DNA of 64,000 nt from Enterobacter phage EC152: the sequence record PP681140.1. One strand, 5' to 3'. Each line of letters starts with the position of its first letter. Within the stretch, counting starts at the first letter, position 1. A program made the position numbers and the translations under genes. Below are positions 3,661 through 63,879 of this stretch, piece after piece. The notes beneath the pieces are model-generated. The model was not told where the DNA came from, ran no database searches, and was given only the letters and a program-made list of their open reading frames with translations.

Positions 3661-4227
3661 ATGAATAACAAAATCACTTTCAACGATCAAGACGTAGCCG
3701 TTTTTAACTTCCTGAAAGAAAAAGGGATTGAATTTAAAGCAGTACACGGCGGAGTCAATAATGATCCTAGTTGGGAAGCGGATCTGTTTTTCGTGTCTTT
3801 TGAGCGTAACGGCAAAATGTACCGTTCAGAATTTAAAACTGGTACAGGTCACCGCGTAGGCCGTCATAGTGGCTTAACCTCTCAGGATAAAAAAGAGCTT
3901 GATAAAGTTGGCGCACAAATCGCCATCGTAGATCAAAAGCACTGGACACGCGACGATTACAAGCGTAATGATAATAAAGCTATGTCTTTTGGTTATCGTG
4001 TTTACGTTGCGACACCTTGCGCCGCAAACGTGCTTTACTGCCTGCTGTCTGATATGTCTTTTGGTGATGAAACTCATGCTGATTTTTGCGCTAATATGGG
4101 CTATGATGAGGACAGCCGCAAAGGTTTAGAAATGTATCTCGAATGTCAGAAAGTAGGACAGGAGATCCGCAAAATCTTTACAGGTGAGGAACTGGAAGCC
4201 CTGCGCGAAATGTTAGAGGATTATTAA
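3661..4227 (+). CDS. Hypothetical early protein, 188 aa
   Basis: Promoter TTGACT-17-TAAGAT at about 3566-3594; Shine-Dalgarno AAAAGGTAAA. Confidence 0.75.
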   Translation: MNNKITFNDQDVAVFNFLKEKGIEFKAVHGGVNNDPSWEADLFFVSFERNGKMYRSEFKTGTGHRVGRHSGLTSQDKKELDKVGAQIAIVDQKHWTRDDYKRNDNKAMSFGYRVYVATPCAANVLYCLLSDMSFGDETHADFCANMGYDEDSRKGLEMYLECQKVGQEIRKIFTGEELEALREMLEDY

Positions 4228-9236: not shown

Positions 9237-9602
9237 ATGTTAAACGCTAAAACTGTTGCTCATGTTGGTTGGGATTCAAACGCGTATGAGGGTGAGTGGT
9301 GCGAAGATTACCGCCGTACTGAATGGGCTTACAAAATCCAGATCGAACTGGTAGACGGTTCACGCTTTTACCTTGATCAATCCTTACTGACTTCTGAAAC
9401 TCATGATTTTGAAGAAATCAAAGCTATTCAGGATCGCCGTGTAGCTCGCATTGAAAAACATTTGGCCGCTGGCGGTTCACTGAATGAAAAACACTGGTAC
9501 GAAACCGATCCGGCTTATGGCTCTGAAGCTTATCAGCGCCTGGATGATATGGGAGAGTTTAAAGCCCGTGAAGAAAAAGAGTTTCAACTGACCGGACGTT
9601 AA
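9237..9602 (+). CDS. Hypothetical early protein, 121 aa
   Basis: Shine-Dalgarno AAGAGGTAAA. Confidence 0.75.
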   Translation: MLNAKTVAHVGWDSNAYEGEWCEDYRRTEWAYKIQIELVDGSRFYLDQSLLTSETHDFEEIKAIQDRRVARIEKHLAAGGSLNEKHWYETDPAYGSEAYQRLDDMGEFKAREEKEFQLTGR

Positions 9603-9678
9603 CAGATTAAAAGGCGCTTGCAATGGTGAGCGCTTTTTGATAAATTAATGTCTCACCAAACAAATGAGGTAAACGGCA

Positions 9679-10002
9679 ATGACTAAAACAGAATTTTTCG
9701 CAATCATCACCGATCATCTGAAAAGCCTTAACGGTCAATTTAACGCTTTCGGTGAATATGTCGCCTTTGACGTTCCAAAATACACCGCCGCCGATCTTGC
9801 TCCTTATGAGTTCCACGAAGATCCGGAAAATTACGCTAAATGGAAAGCAGAAAACCCGGATTATCCCTGGGTAGCTCATGCGTCAGGCTATACTATGAAA
9901 AATTGCTGGTTAGTCGGCCTTATCAATCATCGCTCATATGAAGCCGCCACCAAACAAGCGAAGATTTTCGCACGTTGGATCGCTGAATACCAAACCAAAT
10001 AA
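9679..10002 (+). CDS. Hypothetical early protein, 107 aa
   Basis: Hairpin/terminator 9612-9638 then Shine-Dalgarno AATGAGGTAAAC. Confidence 0.7.
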   Translation: MTKTEFFAIITDHLKSLNGQFNAFGEYVAFDVPKYTAADLAPYEFHEDPENYAKWKAENPDYPWVAHASGYTMKNCWLVGLINHRSYEAATKQAKIFARWIAEYQTK

Positions 10003-10051
10003 ACCCACCGGGGGCGCTAGTCGCCCCGCTATCATATGAGAGGTAAACAAA

Positions 10052-10417
10052 ATGGATCTTAAGAAAATCAATCTTTTAGCCCTGAAAAAGGGTGATATGC
10101 TGTTTCGTGGGTCTTTGTGTGAAGTCCTGGAAATATCAGCGCCGTTTATGCGTGGCTATGGTTATGATAACCATTATTACAAGGCCGAAACGGTAGCGAT
10201 CAAATGTCAAGCCGTATATGATTACGATGTTAACTATTCAAAAGAAAGCGGCAAGCCATTAACGCCCCGTGAATATGTTTTTGATTATCCGATTGAATCA
10301 CAAGTGATGATCGTTACATCTGGCGAAACGGTCACCGTGACAAGCGCTACCGGGAATTTTGACGATAAAACAGGTCATTATCTGTTACCCGGTCAAACAA
10401 TTAATGTTATTGAGTGA
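10052..10417 (+). CDS. Hypothetical early protein, 121 aa
   Basis: Hairpin 10008-10027 followed by Shine-Dalgarno GAGAGGTAAAC. Confidence 0.75.
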   Translation: MDLKKINLLALKKGDMLFRGSLCEVLEISAPFMRGYGYDNHYYKAETVAIKCQAVYDYDVNYSKESGKPLTPREYVFDYPIESQVMIVTSGETVTVTSATGNFDDKTGHYLLPGQTINVIE

Positions 10418-10423
10418 TGACAA

Positions 10424-10687
10424 GTGATTAACCTTGTTTATCATGTGAGCAAAACCAACATTAGCCGGGCTATCTGCCTGGCTTGCTTGTTTGCTGTTTT
10501 GTCAAATGTTTTTTACGGTTGGCTGGCCTGCCTTGTGTTAAGTGACGCAACCGCCCAGACAGTTAACACCATGATCGATGTTTTGCAGCTTGCTTTATAT
10601 TGTGGTGTAAAGCTGTACAGATTTAAACGCCTGGACCGTTACGATCTACCTTTCATCATTGGCGGATCACTGGCTATTATGTTGTAA
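10424..10687 (+). CDS. Hydrophobic membrane protein, 87 aa, probable GTG start
   Basis: Strongly hydrophobic ORF directly after the previous stop. Confidence 0.5.
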   Translation: MINLVYHVSKTNISRAICLACLFAVLSNVFYGWLACLVLSDATAQTVNTMIDVLQLALYCGVKLYRFKRLDRYDLPFIIGGSLAIML

Positions 10688-10690
10688 GCT

Positions 10691-10714
10691 AGGCCGGGAT
10701 TATTCCCGGCTTTT
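10691..10714 (+). terminator. Rho-independent terminator ending the plus-strand early block (AGGCCGGGATTATTCCCGGCTTTT)
   Basis: GC hairpin followed by a T-run. Confidence 0.7.
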
Positions 10715-10786
10715 GCATATCATAACCCACACCAAACCACAACCCAAAATCTTTACCCGCTTTTATGTTGGTTGCAATATCGCAAC

Positions 10787-10801
10787 TGAGAATTATTCTC
10801 A
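10787..10801. promoter_or_regulatory. Perfect 15-bp palindrome TGAGAAT-T-ATTCTCA (operator-like)
   Basis: Same half-site as at 254-272 and 11716-11745. Confidence 0.5.
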
Positions 10802-10817
10802 CCAATCCCGTTGGCAA

Positions 10818-10848
10818 TTATGCAATAAAGTGAATTTAAAGAGATCTC
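10818..10848 (+). promoter_or_regulatory. Copy 4 of the TATGCAATAAAGTGAATTT motif, followed by the palindrome AAAGAGATCTCTTTAAAG (10839-10856); copy 5 lies at 10995-11020
   Basis: See copy 1. Confidence 0.45.
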
Positions 10849-11109
10849 TTTAAAGACATACAACGGCAAGCCTAACAGATAAACCCTCTCAAAACGCGTT
10901 ATATTGCGTTTAATCGTGTATCATTACCCGCCTTTGACTCACTCACACCCCAAAAATGATAACGCAGGTTATCAAGTGAATAAACACTGTGTTTTTATGC
11001 AAATTGAGTGAATACGAAGCAAAAACCCTGAAATGATAACTTTTCTCATCTAACCTATTGTGTGAACTGTCTTTTTTGAGCATAGAAATCATTTTCTGTC
11101 AATAAAAAT

Positions 11110-11360
11110 ATCGTTCGCGTAATCGTGGGGAGTGGCGCGAGCGGAGCGAGCGACACAATAACACGAAGGGTAACTCAAACGATAATAAATATCGTTTTCG
11201 TTCGCGTTATCGTGGCTCGTTAGCGCCTAAGCGTTAACAGACAGGATGACTAGAATGATGAATAATTAACAATGCAACTATTACATAGTTGAAGTATTTT
11301 ATAACCTCGCCACGATAACACCGATTAGCTGATCGCTAATCGCCCTCGTGTTATTGTGTC
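11110..11360. repeat. Nested inverted and direct repeats. A 15-bp perfect inverted repeat GACACAATAACACGA sits at 11152-11166 and 11346-11360. The direct repeat TATCGTTCGCGT(A/T)ATCGTGG sits at 11110-11129 and 11197-11216, with its inverse CCACGATAAC at 11311-11320. The palindrome GATTAGC-tgatc-GCTAATC sits at 11323-11341.
   Basis: Read directly; the region is non-coding and lies where transcription polarity switches. Confidence 0.6.
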
Positions 11361-11715
11361 GCCAGGTTATGAAGATCAAAGGCATTTAATTAGCCTTTAA
11401 TGGTTGACAAACCATGATTAATAGAACTGTAAACCAGGCCGCTGGCCTGCTAATTGCTGGTTTTCTTGAGCATGAAAAGGTGTGCGAAGCTGGCTAACTG
11501 TCAAGTGTTTTATTGATAGGAAAAGTCTATTAAAGCCAGGCGTAGCAAGGCCTGATGATAACTATTCGCATATGAGAATGATAAAGATTGTATGCCCAAA
11601 ACCATGTAATTGCTAAACACATTTTTCCCTCTGTGTCAAGCTTTTTATGACAGATTTACAAAATATTTTCCATTTGAGAATGGTTTTCATTTCGAAACTG
11701 AAATCGAAATCGTAT

Positions 11716-11745
11716 TCAGAATGATTATCATTTGCATTCTCATCG
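11716..11745. promoter_or_regulatory. Operator-like element AGAATGATTATCATTTGCATTCTCATC (palindrome AATGAT-T-ATCATT plus a GCATTCTCAT box)
   Basis: Same boxes as at 254-296. Confidence 0.45.
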
Positions 11746-12252
11746 ACAAAACACCCCACAAAGTGAATAATAACAGGTGTAAACTGTCATGGTAGTAACA
11801 TGTGGCAGGCTATTGGTTGTTATGTGGTATGGTTCGCTGATGCAATGATAACATATGTGACTATATGGCCTGTCGCCCGGTGATCTGTGGTGCGCATAAC
11901 GTGTATTATGTTAAATGGACTCATTCACACAAATATAAGCAAGTCAAGAGCAAATCGTGCGGTAACAGGTGTAAACTGTCACATTGCTAATAGTTGCACT
12001 TGTAATCATTAGTTTCGTTGCGAAATCATCATGCAATCATCGTGCCAAGAACTCGATGGGGTCTCGTGGTCAGACCTCTCAGATATTTTGTAAAGATCCT
12101 TGACAACCCGGAGGGGCTGTGATTGTCCGTCTAACACATCAGACATAGAGATTGCGCCCAGAAACACCCTGTCCCTTGGCCTTGCCACCCTCCGGGATTG
12201 TGTGGGATATTTTCGTGCCAGAACACATAAAGAGAGGGGCCTGTTTACGTTT

Positions 12253-12282
12253 CCCTCCGGGCGGGGGAGGGGGTCATTTTGT
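12253..12282 (+). terminator. Strong GC hairpin CCCTCC-gggcggg-GGAGGG followed by a T-rich tract (terminator-like) inside a GC-rich structured non-coding stretch
   Basis: Read directly; surrounding ORFs lack a ribosome-binding site. Confidence 0.3.
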
Positions 12283-12434
12283 GGGGAAATACATGTTAAT
12301 GAAATGTACATACAATCACGCAGGGGTGGTGTTTGTTTCGTGCAGCCTCAGCACCTATTGCTGTGTAAAGAATAGCAGGGCTGACTCTTCAGGTCAACCC
12401 ATTTGTGTGGTTTGTGTGTTTAATCGGAGCTATA

Positions 12435-12791
12435 CTACCACCGACGATATCTGTTGTGTTCCAACTGAGCTTCTCTGATCATGCACCAGAGCACTCGACT
12501 GTCGTAGCAACCAAGATCTTTAAGCTCTTGTTGTGTGGCTCTCAACTGTTCGTAGAAGTGCAACTTCAGGTCGCCACTGTTTATGAGGATAACCCCAAGA
12601 AGTGATTTTGCATAGTCCCACAACCACTTCACTCTTCGCTCTCTGGCTTCAGATTTCTTGTGTGGGTAGTTCTTTATGTGCGCCCGTTTTGCAGGCGCTT
12701 TTACAACCTTCTGGAAAGACATGTGCTCTCCTATTTTGTAAGATGTGTCGTTTGATAACGGATATAGTCTGGCGAATGCTCTCGCTTCCAT
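12435..12791 (-). CDS. Hypothetical protein, 118 aa, basic
   Basis: Last ORF of the long leftward gene cluster. Confidence 0.5.
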   Translation of the reverse strand: MEARAFARLYPLSNDTSYKIGEHMSFQKVVKAPAKRAHIKNYPHKKSEARERRVKWLWDYAKSLLGVILINSGDLKLHFYEQLRATQQELKDLGCYDSRVLWCMIREAQLEHNRYRRW

Positions 12792-12970
12792 TTCTCAATT
12801 CCCTTCAGGCAGTCCTTCTCTGAGGAGAATTTTAATTCATGCCAGATCCCGTGGTCTGCCTTTGGGACGTGATTCCACACAGACCAGAAGAAAAGAAATG
12901 GAACCTTGACATAGGCGTACCACACATCTGTAGCTGTGTCGTGAACTATCTTGAACTCATGCTCTTTCAT
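12731..12970 (-). CDS. Hypothetical protein, 79 aa
   Basis: ORF on the minus strand. Confidence 0.45.
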   Translation of the reverse strand: MKEHEFKIVHDTATDVWYAYVKVPFLFFWSVWNHVPKADHGIWHELKFSSEKDCLKGIEKWKREHSPDYIRYQTTHLTK

Positions 12971-12980
12971 TGTGTGCTCC

Positions 12981-13163
12981 TTATAAAATCATGGTGACAA
13001 CCATAGCCTGTTGTGTGGTCAACAGCATGGCAGTATTGGTGGTTCCTGAACCGGAAGAGGGTGTGTCGTCATCGTCGTCATCGTTACTCAAAAACACCCA
13101 GAGGGCCAATCCGATAAGGACCGCAACAACCAACAGCAGGACCATAAACACTACAATTTCCAT
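12981..13163 (-). CDS. Small membrane protein, 60 aa, with an acidic DDDDDD tail
   Basis: Hydrophobic N-terminus; a second 37-aa transmembrane peptide ORF lies at about 13167-13280. Confidence 0.45.
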   Translation of the reverse strand: MEIVVFMVLLLVVAVLIGLALWVFLSNDDDDDDTPSSGSGTTNTAMLLTTQQAMVVTMIL

Positions 13164-13523
13164 AGTTAATCCTTCTCAGCCACTGGTCCAACAGCTATGT
13201 ACAGCATCATCCCGACAGGGATAAGGATCAGGATTGATGCAACAAGCACACCCAGCAATAAGAAACCTGTGTCGTCCATAAAATTCTCCTCGTGTAATTG
13301 ATAGAAGGAGTATAATCGACATGCCTGTTTACGTCAAGGGAATTGATGTGCCACTTTAGATAAAAGAAAAGGAGCCTCTTCAGGCTCCCTTATTGTGTGA
13401 GGATGTGTAGGGCTATCAGTGGGAAAGCTATGACTAATGCAAGGATTAACCAACGGGCAGCGTAGTCTCTCCACGTCCATAGTAGGTACTTGAAGTCATC
13501 TGGGTGGTTGTGGAATCCCATGA

Positions 13524-37473: not shown

Positions 37474-39776
37474 CCTTCACAGTACGGATCTTCAACCGAG
37501 TTGTCTGCAATCAGCGGATAGTCCTTGCGGGTCTCTTCCTCTGCTTGCTTCTTCGCCTGAAGCTCTGCGGTCAGGGAGTCACCAGCACCAACCTTAGAGT
37601 TAAGGTAGTACCAGGTTTTCATCCCCATTTTAGTCGCACGGATCAGGTAACCAATCTGGTCCTTCATCGAAATCTTCCCGTCTTTCAACTGGGTGTAGTC
37701 GATGTAGAGGTCAGCACTGATAGCCTGCCCTGCAAACTTCTGGATCACCGCGTAAACGTCGATCAGGTCGTTGCTGCTAATGTCCCATGCTGAGGTGTAG
37801 TAATCCTTCAGCGCTTCGTACTCTGGAACAATAAACAGTACAGATCCTTGTGGAGACTTCTTGAAGATGATGTGATCACGCACCGGGTAAAGCCCGTTTG
37901 TAGTATTGGTTGCCAGAGAGGAACTCTCATTTGGCATATAAGCTTCCAACACACTATTGCGGATACCGCCGTTCTTGATAATCTCCTGGCGAAGAGATTC
38001 CCAGTCCTGCTTCAGGCTTGGGTCTTTCACCACACTATCAACCGCCTTGTTATAGGTGTCGATAGGCAACCATCCCTGTGGGTACTTGGTTTTGTTCATC
38101 CAAGGTGCAACACCACGTTCTTTTGCCAGTCGCAGACTCGCCTTGTGCAGGCTGAAGCTGTGCAGTTCTGCAAGATCGTGAACCAACTGCTTACTCTCCG
38201 GAGAACCATACGCGACTTTGTGTTTCGCGATGTAGTGAGCAAGGTTTGTCAGGCCAACACCAATTGAACGACGAGACTTGGCAGTATGCTCCATGTTCTC
38301 ATACGGATAATCCATGATATCCATAACGTTGTCGATCATCAGGACGGTGTAGTAAGCCACATCCTCGTACTCTTCCGGAGATACCCGACCCGCCACCAGA
38401 GAGGACAGGAAGCATAATGCAACCTCACCATCATCTGCAAGAGGATCAAAGATATTCCGCATATCCTTATAACCCTTGGTTGGCAGACAGATTTCCTGAC
38501 ACAGGTTAGAGGAGTAAATTGTCTCCAGGAACGGTGTGTGTCGGTTCATTTCATCAGGCCAGTACACATACAGGCGACCAGTCTCTGCTCGTTGGGTGAT
38601 TAGCTCTAAAGCGAGATCGCGAGCCTTAACCCAGGTCTTAGGAATCTTTTTGTCAGCAGCCACACGAGCAACTTCTGCATCAAACTCCTGCATGGTCATC
38701 TTAAACATACCCTCGTGCAACTGAGGAGCATCCTTGTAAGAGACCAACATCCAGTCAAGGTTCTTAGCCACACGGTTCATGAACGACTGGTTGATACCAA
38801 TGGAGTAGTCCATTGTGTTGATACGCTTCGACGTTACAGTCTGCGGGTTTTTAAGTCGCATCAGTTCATCGATCTGCGGGTCAAGCGCAAGGAATGAAAT
38901 CGTTGCACTACCACCACGGGTTGACTGACGGTTCTCCTTCACCCCGGCATCAATGCCACGGTAATAAGGCAGTTTACCCATGTGTTTGATCGTATTGCCA
39001 CGAACACCATCACCAATCGAACGGGAGGACAGGTAATAACCAATCCCTGCCTGTGCAACTGTCATGGTGTATGCCACTTCACGAGCAACACCAATACTCT
39101 TAGCCGTATCGTCGGCCTTAATGATGCAACAGGACGCATAACCAGTACGCCCGGTACGCAGCCCGTTCAGATACGGTGTTGGGGCATTGATCTTCAGGTC
39201 AGAGAGATAAGTGTACAACTGGATCACATCGTTAATACGACGATCCTTTGGCATACGCTTCATCACTGCCATCGCGATACCCATGAACATCATCTGCGGA
39301 GATTCAAACAGAACATCGTTGATGTTGTCCTTGATACCGTACTTGTCACGGAACTGCTTCAGAACTGCATAGCCGTAATCAAGGTCTTTCGAGTGATTGA
39401 TAACTGTTTCCAGCTTAACCAGATCGAAAGAGTCATACCCCATATCTTCCCAGTAACCGATACTGGTCATGTAGTGGTAGAAGTTAAACAGCGTAGGGAT
39501 CTTTGTGAAGCCACCATACGCCTCCTTGTAGATCTGTCCGATGAGCACACGACCAGCCATGCGGGAGTGAGCTTCATCTTTACGACTTACACAAGCGTCG
39601 ATCAATGCCTGGTTTACTTCACGAGTGGTGCATCCATCATACAGGCGCTTATAAGCGTCCATAGAGATGTGGGACCAGTTACCATTACCGTCATCACCAA
39701 AGATTGCTGCTTTGTTCAAACGTTCTGGTTCAAAAGGAACACTAGATCCATCACTCTTTACAACTGTATTGATCAA
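37461..39776 (-). CDS. nrdA: Ribonucleotide reductase class Ia alpha subunit
   Basis: ATP-cone N-terminus and the active-site motif SNLCQEICLP. Confidence 0.9.
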   Translation of the reverse strand: MINTVVKSDGSSVPFEPERLNKAAIFGDDGNGNWSHISMDAYKRLYDGCTTREVNQALIDACVSRKDEAHSRMAGRVLIGQIYKEAYGGFTKIPTLFNFYHYMTSIGYWEDMGYDSFDLVKLETVINHSKDLDYGYAVLKQFRDKYGIKDNINDVLFESPQMMFMGIAMAVMKRMPKDRRINDVIQLYTYLSDLKINAPTPYLNGLRTGRTGYASCCIIKADDTAKSIGVAREVAYTMTVAQAGIGYYLSSRSIGDGVRGNTIKHMGKLPYYRGIDAGVKENRQSTRGGSATISFLALDPQIDELMRLKNPQTVTSKRINTMDYSIGINQSFMNRVAKNLDWMLVSYKDAPQLHEGMFKMTMQEFDAEVARVAADKKIPKTWVKARDLALELITQRAETGRLYVYWPDEMNRHTPFLETIYSSNLCQEICLPTKGYKDMRNIFDPLADDGEVALCFLSSLVAGRVSPEEYEDVAYYTVLMIDNVMDIMDYPYENMEHTAKSRRSIGVGLTNLAHYIAKHKVAYGSPESKQLVHDLAELHSFSLHKASLRLAKERGVAPWMNKTKYPQGWLPIDTYNKAVDSVVKDPSLKQDWESLRQEIIKNGGIRNSVLEAYMPNESSSLATNTTNGLYPVRDHIIFKKSPQGSVLFIVPEYEALKDYYTSAWDISSNDLIDVYAVIQKFAGQAISADLYIDYTQLKDGKISMKDQIGYLIRATKMGMKTWYYLNSKVGAGDSLTAELQAKKQAEEETRKDYPLIADNSVEDPYCEGCAL

Positions 39777-39785
39777 ACTTTCTCC

Positions 39786-40016
39786 TTATTTTTCTTCGAA
39801 TTGAGCAAGATACTTGTCAGCTTCATCAACTTCCTCGTCTTGAGGAGTATCTTCAGATGGAGCAGTGACGTTGATTATTTTACCAGAATATTGATCATAG
39901 TAAACATCATCGTACATCTTACTGTCATCGGTCAAATCATTGAAGTAGAGCCACCCGGCGTAGTGATGCTTATCATCGAAGCCACGGTCTTTCCACTTGG
40001 TCTTCTCTTTACTCAT
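39786..40016 (-). CDS. Small acidic protein, 76 aa
   Basis: ORF on the minus strand. Confidence 0.5.
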   Translation of the reverse strand: MSKEKTKWKDRGFDDKHHYAGWLYFNDLTDDSKMYDDVYYDQYSGKIINVTAPSEDTPQDEEVDEADKYLAQFEEK

Positions 40017-62877: not shown

Positions 62878-62951
62878 GGTTCTGTAGCTTAGTTGGTTAG
62901 AGCGCTTCCCTCATAAGGAAGAGGTCGCAGGTTCAATCCCTGCCAGAACTA
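62878..62951 (+). tRNA. tRNA-Met (anticodon CAU)
   Basis: Manual cloverleaf: acceptor GGTTCTG/CAGAACT (G1-U72), D-arm GCTT-AGTTGGTTA-GAGC, anticodon stem CTTCC/GGAAG with loop CTCATAA, T-arm GCAGG-TTCAATC-CCTGC, discriminator A; CCA encoded at 62952-62954. Confidence 0.8.
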
Positions 62952-62968
62952 CCAAACGAGGAGAGACC

Positions 62969-63743: not shown

Positions 63744-63816
63744 GGGGTATTAACTCAGCGGTTAGAGTAGCGGCCTCTTAAGCCGAAGGTCGAAGGTTCG
63801 AATCCTTCATGCCCTA
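63744..63816 (+). tRNA. tRNA-Lys (anticodon CUU)
   Basis: Manual cloverleaf: acceptor GGGGTAT/ATGCCCT, D-arm ACTC-AGCGGTTA-GAGT, anticodon loop CTCTTAA, T-arm GAAGG-TTCGAAT-CCTTC, discriminator A, CCA encoded. Confidence 0.75.
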
Positions 63817-63879
63817 CCAAACAACGGGCTTTGGAAGTAATGCTTAATTACGGGTGAGGAATCCCCGGACCCCCAGCTT

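Follow-up and report, generated by a model that had tools for sequence, protein, structure and literature searches.

Probable chromosome-end region of the Seunavirus EC152: a predicted direct terminal repeat and a conserved nested inverted-repeat element between converging gene clusters

The genome of Enterobacter phage EC152 (sequence record PP681140.1) was analysed over a stretch of 64,000 nucleotides, hereafter the window, whose numbering is used throughout. We deal here with the 1.7-kb interval between two of its gene clusters, which carries a predicted direct terminal repeat of 516 bp and, to the left of it, a nested inverted-repeat element (Table 1). Sequence match assigns the window to Seunavirus (Vequintavirinae, rV5-like myoviruses), the closest matches being Escherichia phage LNA4 (96%), Cronobacter phage GAP31 (94%) and phage 4MG (91%). 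The interval is bordered by the last open reading frame (ORF) of a plus-strand cluster, which codes for an 87-amino acid protein, and by the last ORF of a minus-strand cluster. The hairpin followed by TTTT at the end of the plus-strand genes, recognised as a terminator in an earlier reading of this stretch (hereafter the original prediction), is found as described, and PVP-SE1 (rho-independent) and Mydo have a terminator annotated at their homologous sites. The terminator-like hairpin of the minus-strand cluster is kept by the relatives. Both clusters converge on the interval and have a terminator at their end, indicating that the interval joins the 3' ends of two transcription units and is not a divergent promoter region. 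The original prediction had the minus-strand cluster begin near 12430 and considered a master regulatory region; position 12435 is the 3' end of that cluster, the polarity switch is convergent, and the regulatory role loses its ground with both clusters ending here in terminators. The eight ORFs flanking the interval all match phage families of unknown function and give no clue to its role.

Positions 10715 to 12434 are non-coding. No ORF longer than 108 amino acids lies between ORFs 10424-10687 and 12791-12435, and none of the 12 ORFs of 39 to 100 amino acids found there keeps an open frame in any of 8 to 14 relatives or has a third-codon-position bias, in line with the original prediction that there is no credible ORF. 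The gene at 10424-10687, used as positive control, is intact in 9/9 relatives and has 383 substitutions at the third codon position versus 235 and 157 at the others. Small genes filling the interval are rejected on these grounds. Small coding sequences annotated here in some records disagree from record to record, and the authors of the PVP-SE1 record left ~2.2 kb unannotated at the homologous place. ARAGORN detects no transfer RNA (tRNA) gene in the interval. Its whole length can be aligned at 70-80% identity across Seunavirus and Mydovirus, with parts reaching Henunavirus. The block 11025-11224 is 82-95% column-identical and is detected by megablast in Klebsiella and Proteus phages, as against only ~61% identity for the neighbouring 87-amino acid protein, so that this non-coding DNA is under more constraint than the adjacent genes. 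The longest exact repeats in the interval are 17 nt (inverted) and 19 nt (direct), the maximum in 300 dinucleotide shuffles being 15 for each.

The 87-amino acid gene served as an anchor for locating the equivalent place in phages of other genera. The GenBank record of Erwinia phage Hena1 annotates a 519-bp "direct terminal repeat" at each end, and its right copy begins ~950 bp after the homolog of ORF 10424-10687. Klebsiella phage KPP-1 has a 514-bp direct terminal repeat (116,316-116,829), supported by PhageTerm and by doubled coverage, and its authors report T7-type packaging (PMC9862379); the record of Klebsiella phage DP gives 514-bp repeat_regions at both ends. In the multiple alignment these three repeats start and end at the same columns, equivalent to window positions 11616 and 12131, and share with the window segment the start AACAC and the finish TGTCCGTC. 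The boundary motifs TTGCTA^AACAC and TGTCCGTC^TA(A/G)CAC (caret, boundary) are separated by 516 bp in the window; more than 20 relatives have both, separated by 509-516 bp, a spacing held despite 20-30% sequence divergence and many insertions and deletions elsewhere. By the same mapping the homologous boundaries of Vequintavirus FV3 are 457-458 bp apart; published Vequintavirus repeats measure 458 bp in EdH4 and HdK5 and 459 bp in Gotham. Avunavirus Av-05 is arranged likewise: its clusters converge, a nested inverted repeat and the boundary motifs are present, and the predicted repeat is 453 bp long.

Homology to three independently defined repeats and the conservation of the boundaries point to the interval as a genome terminus or concatemer junction. 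We consider it very likely, from these alignments, that 11616-12131 is a direct terminal repeat and that the 1.7-kb interval is the chromosome-end or concatemer-junction region. The repeat would be seen only once because the window sequence is in joined form. The mature left end is predicted to begin with AACACATTTTT and the right end to close with GATTGTCCGTC, the ends of EC152 itself being placed by homology to the repeats of its relatives. The original prediction saw correctly that the interval is conserved, non-coding and cis-acting; it missed the predicted terminal repeat and cut sites, which give the interval its main identity.

The nested element lies left of the predicted repeat, at 253 bp in the window. 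DP and Hena1 each have a single copy of it, in unique DNA that precedes the right-end repeat, with a gap of 239 bp in DP and ~260 bp in Hena1; insertions widen this gap to ~300-430 bp in PVP-SE1 and Av-05. Its outer stem P1 is the inverted repeat noticed in the original prediction, which extends to about 20 bp as was supposed, and the 19-bp palindrome also listed there forms hairpin P4. Copies of the 18-mer TCGTTCGCGTWATCGTGG, which were thought to flank the inverted repeat, do exist; one stands outside the left arm and two are inside the element, one direct (11198-11215) and one an inverted 11-mer (11309-11319). The GC-rich block GGAGTGGCGCGAGCGGAGCGA separates the outside 18-mer from P1. Its second GCGAGC unit overlaps the first bases of the P1 left arm (11150-11151), and its GTGGCGC could pair alternatively with the beginning of that arm. 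This block shows little or no variation in Seuna-, Mydo- and Henunavirus and can still be recognised in Av-05, while P3 and the outside 18-mer are invariant across three genera. The 9-mer GTWATYGTG has five copies within 240 bp, in alternating orientation, one of them (11119) just outside 11150-11362; seven copies are found in the whole 64-kb window for ~2.1 expected by chance.

Comparison with related phages, the check that had been proposed, finds the inverted repeats conserved and covarying. The 233-nt stretch around the element has fold z-scores against shuffles of -7.5 and -10.1 as RNA and of -8.5 and -9.8 as DNA, and unguided RNAalifold returns all four helices P1 to P4. In the alignment of 21 distinct homologs the proportion of paired cells is 93.5%, versus 28-53% when the partners are slid; 14 pairs changed on both sides and 0 on one side only, values reached by 0/500 shuffles. 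P1 exists in at least nine arm variants, each with its matching complement, to which Av-05 adds a tenth. Two Henunavirus phages have unrelated P1 arms, GCCACCTATAAAAGCAAGTAG and GCCACCTATAAACGCTGATAG, each perfectly complemented, and in Av-05 the P3 stem is replaced by a different 16-bp perfect stem. It is the complementarity that is conserved in these helices, not the sequence. The combination of invariant motifs and covarying stems gives the element the look of a protein-bound hairpin or cruciform DNA site. Our literature search found no description of a conserved nested inverted-repeat element beside the Vequintavirinae repeat.

A number of public assemblies stop or break within the element, at the equivalents of window positions ~11187-11360: an IMG/VR sequence (L017), PP595732 (SalP219), MG969411 (GE_vB_MG) and MZ326168 (NINP13076). 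The breaks are probably assembly artefacts due to the hairpin; they may also reflect a physical discontinuity. Two different insertions, in different phages, interrupt the P1 right arm at a single point (window ~11358-11362). The first, of ~79-92 nt, is found in PVP-SE1 (L001, ~3893-3984) and in homologs L009 and L010 with 13-bp arm duplications GTGTTATAGTGTC; the second, of ~45 nt, is found in FENT2 (L008, ~2942-2990) with 8-bp arm duplications TTGTGTCG. Two insertions at one point may be the mark of a recurrent staggered break. Other insertions of ~45-55 nt, each with three consecutive small hairpins, occur at differing places of the region in different phages: within P3 in LNA4, in the P2 loop and at ~11086 in Mydo, at ~11379 in EspYZU14, at 2481-2516 in Av-05 (L030), and at window ~11548 in KPP-1, KpS8 and PVP-SE1. 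They often end in CCCGnnnnCGGG or CCGGnnnnCCGG, and those of LNA4 and EspYZU14 have the identical hairpin CAATGTTACACATTG in common. These insertions look like a family of small mobile or copy-paste elements. The one found in the window at 10768-10817 is shared with LNA4 and absent from GAP31, 4MG and SPLA5a.

Within the predicted repeat, the 12-nt sequences TTTACAAAATAT and ATATTTTGTAAA are inverted copies of each other and have no further copy in 64 kb. Their near-symmetric placing, 39 nt and 37 nt inside the two boundaries, suggests a single protein-DNA geometry for both predicted cuts. The right copy belongs to a block, GATATTTTSWAAAGAT, that Seuna-, Mydo-, Henuna- and Avunavirus all keep, and of which FV3 shows no more than a partial GATATTT. 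The AT-rich microrepeats listed in the original prediction are present, as is its direct repeat, a perfect one of 19 nt whose two copies lie slightly away from the positions first given, at 11771-11789 and 11963-11981. The core of the latter, GTAAACTGTC, recurs upstream of the FV3 repeat as tandem copies of the GTAAACTGTCAAGGT type, and all three sites of GYRAACTGTC in the window fall in the interval. The most conserved non-coding sequence found in the interval is the 31-nt block at 11886-11916, which the Avunavirus phages Av-05 and TH18, and also three Escherichia phage records of ~54 kb, match at 100% identity. Three more genera have it nearly unchanged, with near-identity in Vequintavirus FV3 and in Henunavirus; phages FV3, Hena1 and pEp_SNUABM_01 carry it. 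This block does not fit a sigma-70 promoter. Beyond the right boundary, the stable GC-rich hairpin announced by the original prediction is there, at 12250-12273; the hairpin and the G runs after it persist in all aligned relatives, with a stem sequence that differs between genera. Hairpin and G runs (GGGCGGGGGAGGGGG ... GGGG) together occupy 12250-12286, and the PVP-SE1 homolog has four tracts of at least three G with 1-nt loops, a possible plus-strand G-quadruplex just inside the left genome end.

Table 1. Features of the interval and of its borders (window positions; P1 to P4, helices of the nested element)
Feature	Position	Strand	Remarks
Last plus-strand ORF	10424-10687	+	87-amino acid protein, left neighbour of the interval
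Intrinsic terminator of plus-strand cluster	10693-10714	+	GCCGGGA-TTAT-TCCCGGC, 7-bp GC stem, then TTTT
Lineage-specific insertion, ~47 nt	10768-10817		Three consecutive small hairpins; triple-hairpin detector match 10771-10814
Conserved palindrome TGATAAC-GCAG-GTTATCA	10957-10974		In all relatives; TAATAAC...GTTATTA in Mydovirus, a compensatory change
Near-invariant 18-mer TCGTTCGCGTWATCGTGG, first copy	11111-11128	+	Outside the left arm; holds 9-mer copy a (11119); 21 homologs
Near-invariant GC-rich block GGAGTGGCGCGAGCGGAGCGA	11129-11149		At the base of P1; GCGAGC twice, 9 bp apart
Nested inverted-repeat element	11150-11362		Four helices P1-P4, interior of P3 variable
P1 outer stem	11150-11170 with 11343-11362		20-nt inverted repeat (11150-11169 / 11343-11362), 95% complementary
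P2 hairpin	11177-11197		
P3 stem	11204-11216 with 11309-11321		Encloses the variable interior
P4 hairpin (palindrome)	11323-11341		
Predicted direct terminal repeat, 516 bp	11616-12131		Single copy in circular/concatemer-type representation
12-nt perfect inverted repeat, left copy, TTTACAAAATAT	11655-11666		39 nt inside left boundary; conserved in Seuna- and Mydovirus only
GAAAC/GAAATCG short tandem repeats	11694-11712		Conserved in KPP-1, KpS8, PVP-SE1
19-nt perfect direct repeat TAACAGGTGTAAACTGTCA, copy 1	11771-11789	+	Holds the GTAAACTGTC motif
Ultra-conserved 31-nt block ...GCGCATAACGTGTATTATGTTAAAT...	11886-11916		Middle of predicted terminal repeat
Direct repeat TAACAGGTGTAAACTGTCA, copy 2	11963-11981	+	Lineage-specific, not conserved beyond close relatives
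12-nt inverted repeat, right copy, ATATTTTGTAAA	12083-12094		37 nt inside right boundary
GC-rich hairpin, then G-tracts	12250-12273	+	Terminator-like match, ~120 nt past the repeat
Terminator-like hairpin of minus-strand cluster	12378-12400	-	35 nt past the stop of ORF 12791-12435
Last minus-strand ORF	12791-12435	-	3' end of cluster at 12435

The best explanation of the whole, to which we give a probability of about 0.65, is that a phage with T7-type packaging has its chromosome-end region here, together with a processing element. The interval would be the joined form of the chromosome ends, as found in a concatemer or a circular assembly. The terminase would recognise this junction and cut at TTGCTA^AACAC and TGTCCGTC^TAACAC, and strand-displacement synthesis would duplicate the repeat so that both ends of each packaged genome carry a copy. 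Convergent clusters that stop at terminators would free ~1.7 kb for cis-acting signals. The 0.25 kb of 11111-11362 could then be a cis DNA site that recruits or positions the terminase or the copying machinery, a protein-bound DNA capable of forming hairpins or a cruciform and used in concatemer processing. It would be the counterpart of the T7 pacB recognition site plus right-end origin, at the same place relative to the repeat, and its hairpin may fold back and aid the copying of the repeat. For the nested inverted repeat taken by itself, such a role in packaging or processing is a tentative assignment.

Compared with the Vequintavirinae repeats of KPP-1, DP and Hena1, the window segment has homologous sequence, identical ends (AACAC... 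and ...TGTCCGTC) and a length within a few bp, and it too lies where converging clusters meet, the nested inverted repeat preceding the right copy by ~240-260 bp. It differs from these measured repeats in that the Seunavirus ends are predicted and that PVP-SE1 is reported to be circularly permuted. The likeness to T7 and T3 is in a short terminal repeat with exact ends that is duplicated after the cutting of concatemers, and for T7 also in cis signals that occupy unique DNA close to the left side of the junction repeat, where phiOR is annotated. The packaging recognition site pacB of T7 has the same relative place, left of the right repeat. Processing of T7 DNA is coupled to T7 RNA polymerase, and Chung, Nardone and Hinkle are said to have described a hairpin-ended intermediate of it (J Mol Biol, 1990). 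There is no sequence similarity to T7, and EC152 is a 147-kb myovirus with a 516-bp repeat as against 160 bp in T7; since T7 has no comparably long inverted repeat, the likeness is one of functional analogy and not of membership.

Two further systems offer partial parallels. The cos site of phage lambda has the order cosQ-cosN-cosB, with three R sites for the small terminase in mixed orientation and a bend or structure between them. Like lambda cos, the region has several short conserved copies in both orientations beside a predicted terminase cut site, but the predicted cuts are at least 253 bp from these copies, with variable spacing, and the terminal repeats are of blunt type whereas lambda has 12-nt cohesive ends. 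The inverted terminal repeat (ITR) of adeno-associated virus (AAV) is a T-shaped hairpin whose GAGC repeats are bound by the Rep nickase and which supports hairpin-primed replication. Here too an outer stem surrounds small hairpins, with a GCGAGC-N3-GCGAGC block at the stem base that resembles the GAGC Rep-binding element; the element differs from the ITR in being internal duplex phage DNA and not the end of a single-stranded genome, and no Rep or HUH nickase gene was seen (no search was aimed at one). We take this resemblance as a lead only and claim no membership. Following it, the element could be a snap-back, four-way, AAV-ITR-like DNA hairpin with a bound protein, nicked to prime the copying of the 516-bp repeat, which we regard as rather improbable. 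If this were true, the element would be the intermediate that gives each concatemer-cut chromosome its own repeat, by a mechanism conserved across at least four Vequintavirinae genera, and the independent insertions of FENT2 and of the PVP-SE1 group, with target duplications of 8 and 13 bp, would mark a recurrent staggered break in the right arm.

Several points weigh against the chromosome-end interpretation or against the role given to the element. The termini of EC152 are predicted by homology to those of its relatives, and no Seunavirus record of the phage collection has an annotated terminal repeat. PVP-SE1, the type phage of Seunavirus, has been described as terminally redundant and circularly permuted, according to a statement cited in PMC3475682. 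This report is the main evidence against the identity of the terminus; older methods could easily have overlooked a repeat of 0.5 kb in a genome of 146 kb. The distance from element to repeat ranges from ~240 to 430 bp through insertions, so that no fixed geometry ties the two together. FV3 has only a simple 22-bp hairpin at the position of the element. The right end of T7 (39,130-39,937) is without a comparably long inverted repeat and has only imperfect ones of 10-15 nt, and the analogy with T7 hairpins draws on a single line of PMC4281155, which states that a hairpin DNA form is reported during T7 concatemer processing. Finally, covariation does not separate folded DNA from RNA, and the three non-Watson-Crick positions are all G.U on the minus strand, which suits a minus-strand RNA equally well.

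The element at 11.1-11.4 kb could alternatively be an iteron-type replication origin, with repeated sites beside AT-rich unwinding DNA and inverted repeats that aid melting or priming. Five copies of GTWATYGTG and three of the 13-18-mer are packed within 250 bp of non-coding DNA, Av-05 has three to four copies of GCGTTATTGTGTC, and the GC content falls to 0.345-0.385 at 10900-11200 and to ~0.33 at 11500-11800. In T7, phiOR is annotated ~550 bp left of the right repeat, and an origin would be compatible with the terminal-repeat reading because this secondary origin of T7 has such a place. However, the interval has no DnaA box, no initiator is found among the eight flanking ORFs (no search was aimed at initiator genes), and binding sites alone leave unexplained why the parts of P1, P2 and P4 outside the motifs stay complementary through many substitutions. 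We hold an origin to be unlikely. The partition site that the original prediction also considered finds no support.

The original prediction mentioned a structured RNA as well, which fits the covariation and would be a non-coding RNA of ~215 nt, probably on the minus strand, folded as a four-way junction closed by P1 and present in several Vequintavirinae genera. RNAalifold recovers P1 to P4; the compensatory changes would suit a DNA fold equally. Of the two strands, the minus has the more stable fold (-95.4 versus -86.5 kcal/mol; z -10.1 versus -7.5), and the wobble-type positions that are G.U on the minus strand are A.C on the plus strand. Against these observations, folding as DNA is equally significant, no Rfam 15 family matches the element at E<1 (9500-13500 searched), no conserved sigma-70-like promoter is present on either side, where matches are weak and unconserved, and neither strand has a terminator or T run after P1. 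The interval is enclosed by two convergent terminators, and the invariance of P3 and of the flanking 18-mer in three genera, with an extra unpaired copy outside the fold, is a better fit to protein-binding DNA. The only Rfam match in the interval is a sub-threshold one to Transposase-1 (19.7 bits versus 42.8) at 11725-11792, which does not overlap the inverted repeat. Lacking promoter, terminator and Rfam match, a structured RNA has a slim chance. The 20-bp arms could also flank an invertible segment, such as a recombinase-driven promoter switch, or the interval could be a general regulatory hub. Inverted repeats of 20 bp ~170-190 bp apart do resemble known invertons, and several public assemblies break inside the element. 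Nevertheless, one internal orientation is common to all 21 distinct homologs and Av-05, which makes inversion unlikely; moreover, the interior is itself made of nested hairpins, no recombinase gene is adjacent, and both clusters point into the region and leave nothing nearby for a hub to regulate. We find either possibility hardly credible.

A pseudo-ToxI antitoxin RNA locus like that of phiTE, a related phage, was considered and rejected: in Certrevirus CB7 this locus is beside a tRNA gene among plus-strand genes, which is not the region studied here, and the window has no ToxI-like sequence. Sequences with ~90-100% identity to the ToxI antitoxin RNA repeat occur in ~200 phage records, mostly of Klebsiella phages, for example at 143739-143809 of MF979560 and 141138-141201 of KY514263; some of these sequences are beside tRNA genes. 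The window has plus-strand tRNA genes for Met (CAT, 62878-62954) and Lys (CTT, 63744-63819) near its end. In the 118-amino acid minus-strand ORF at 12438-12791, the PHROG match begins only at residue 24 and spans the whole 96-position profile, for which reason the start codon is probably internal.

Short terminal repeats are documented in several Vequintavirinae genera, and the repeat described here is an ordinary feature of the subfamily, previously unrecognised in Seunavirus. Genomes of this genus mostly enter the databases in circular form or opened at an arbitrary point, and its type phage is called permuted. The present analysis fixes the likely physical ends of Seunavirus genomes, including those of PVP-SE1 and its relatives used in biocontrol and therapy, and known ends help annotation, engineering and the judging of transduction risk. 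How the repeat is duplicated during packaging in phages with exact terminal repeats is still poorly understood (2026 review). A conserved, covarying hairpin and repeat element on the fixed side of the repeat across the subfamily provides a mutable target for models of hairpin-primed copying or terminase recognition outside T7.

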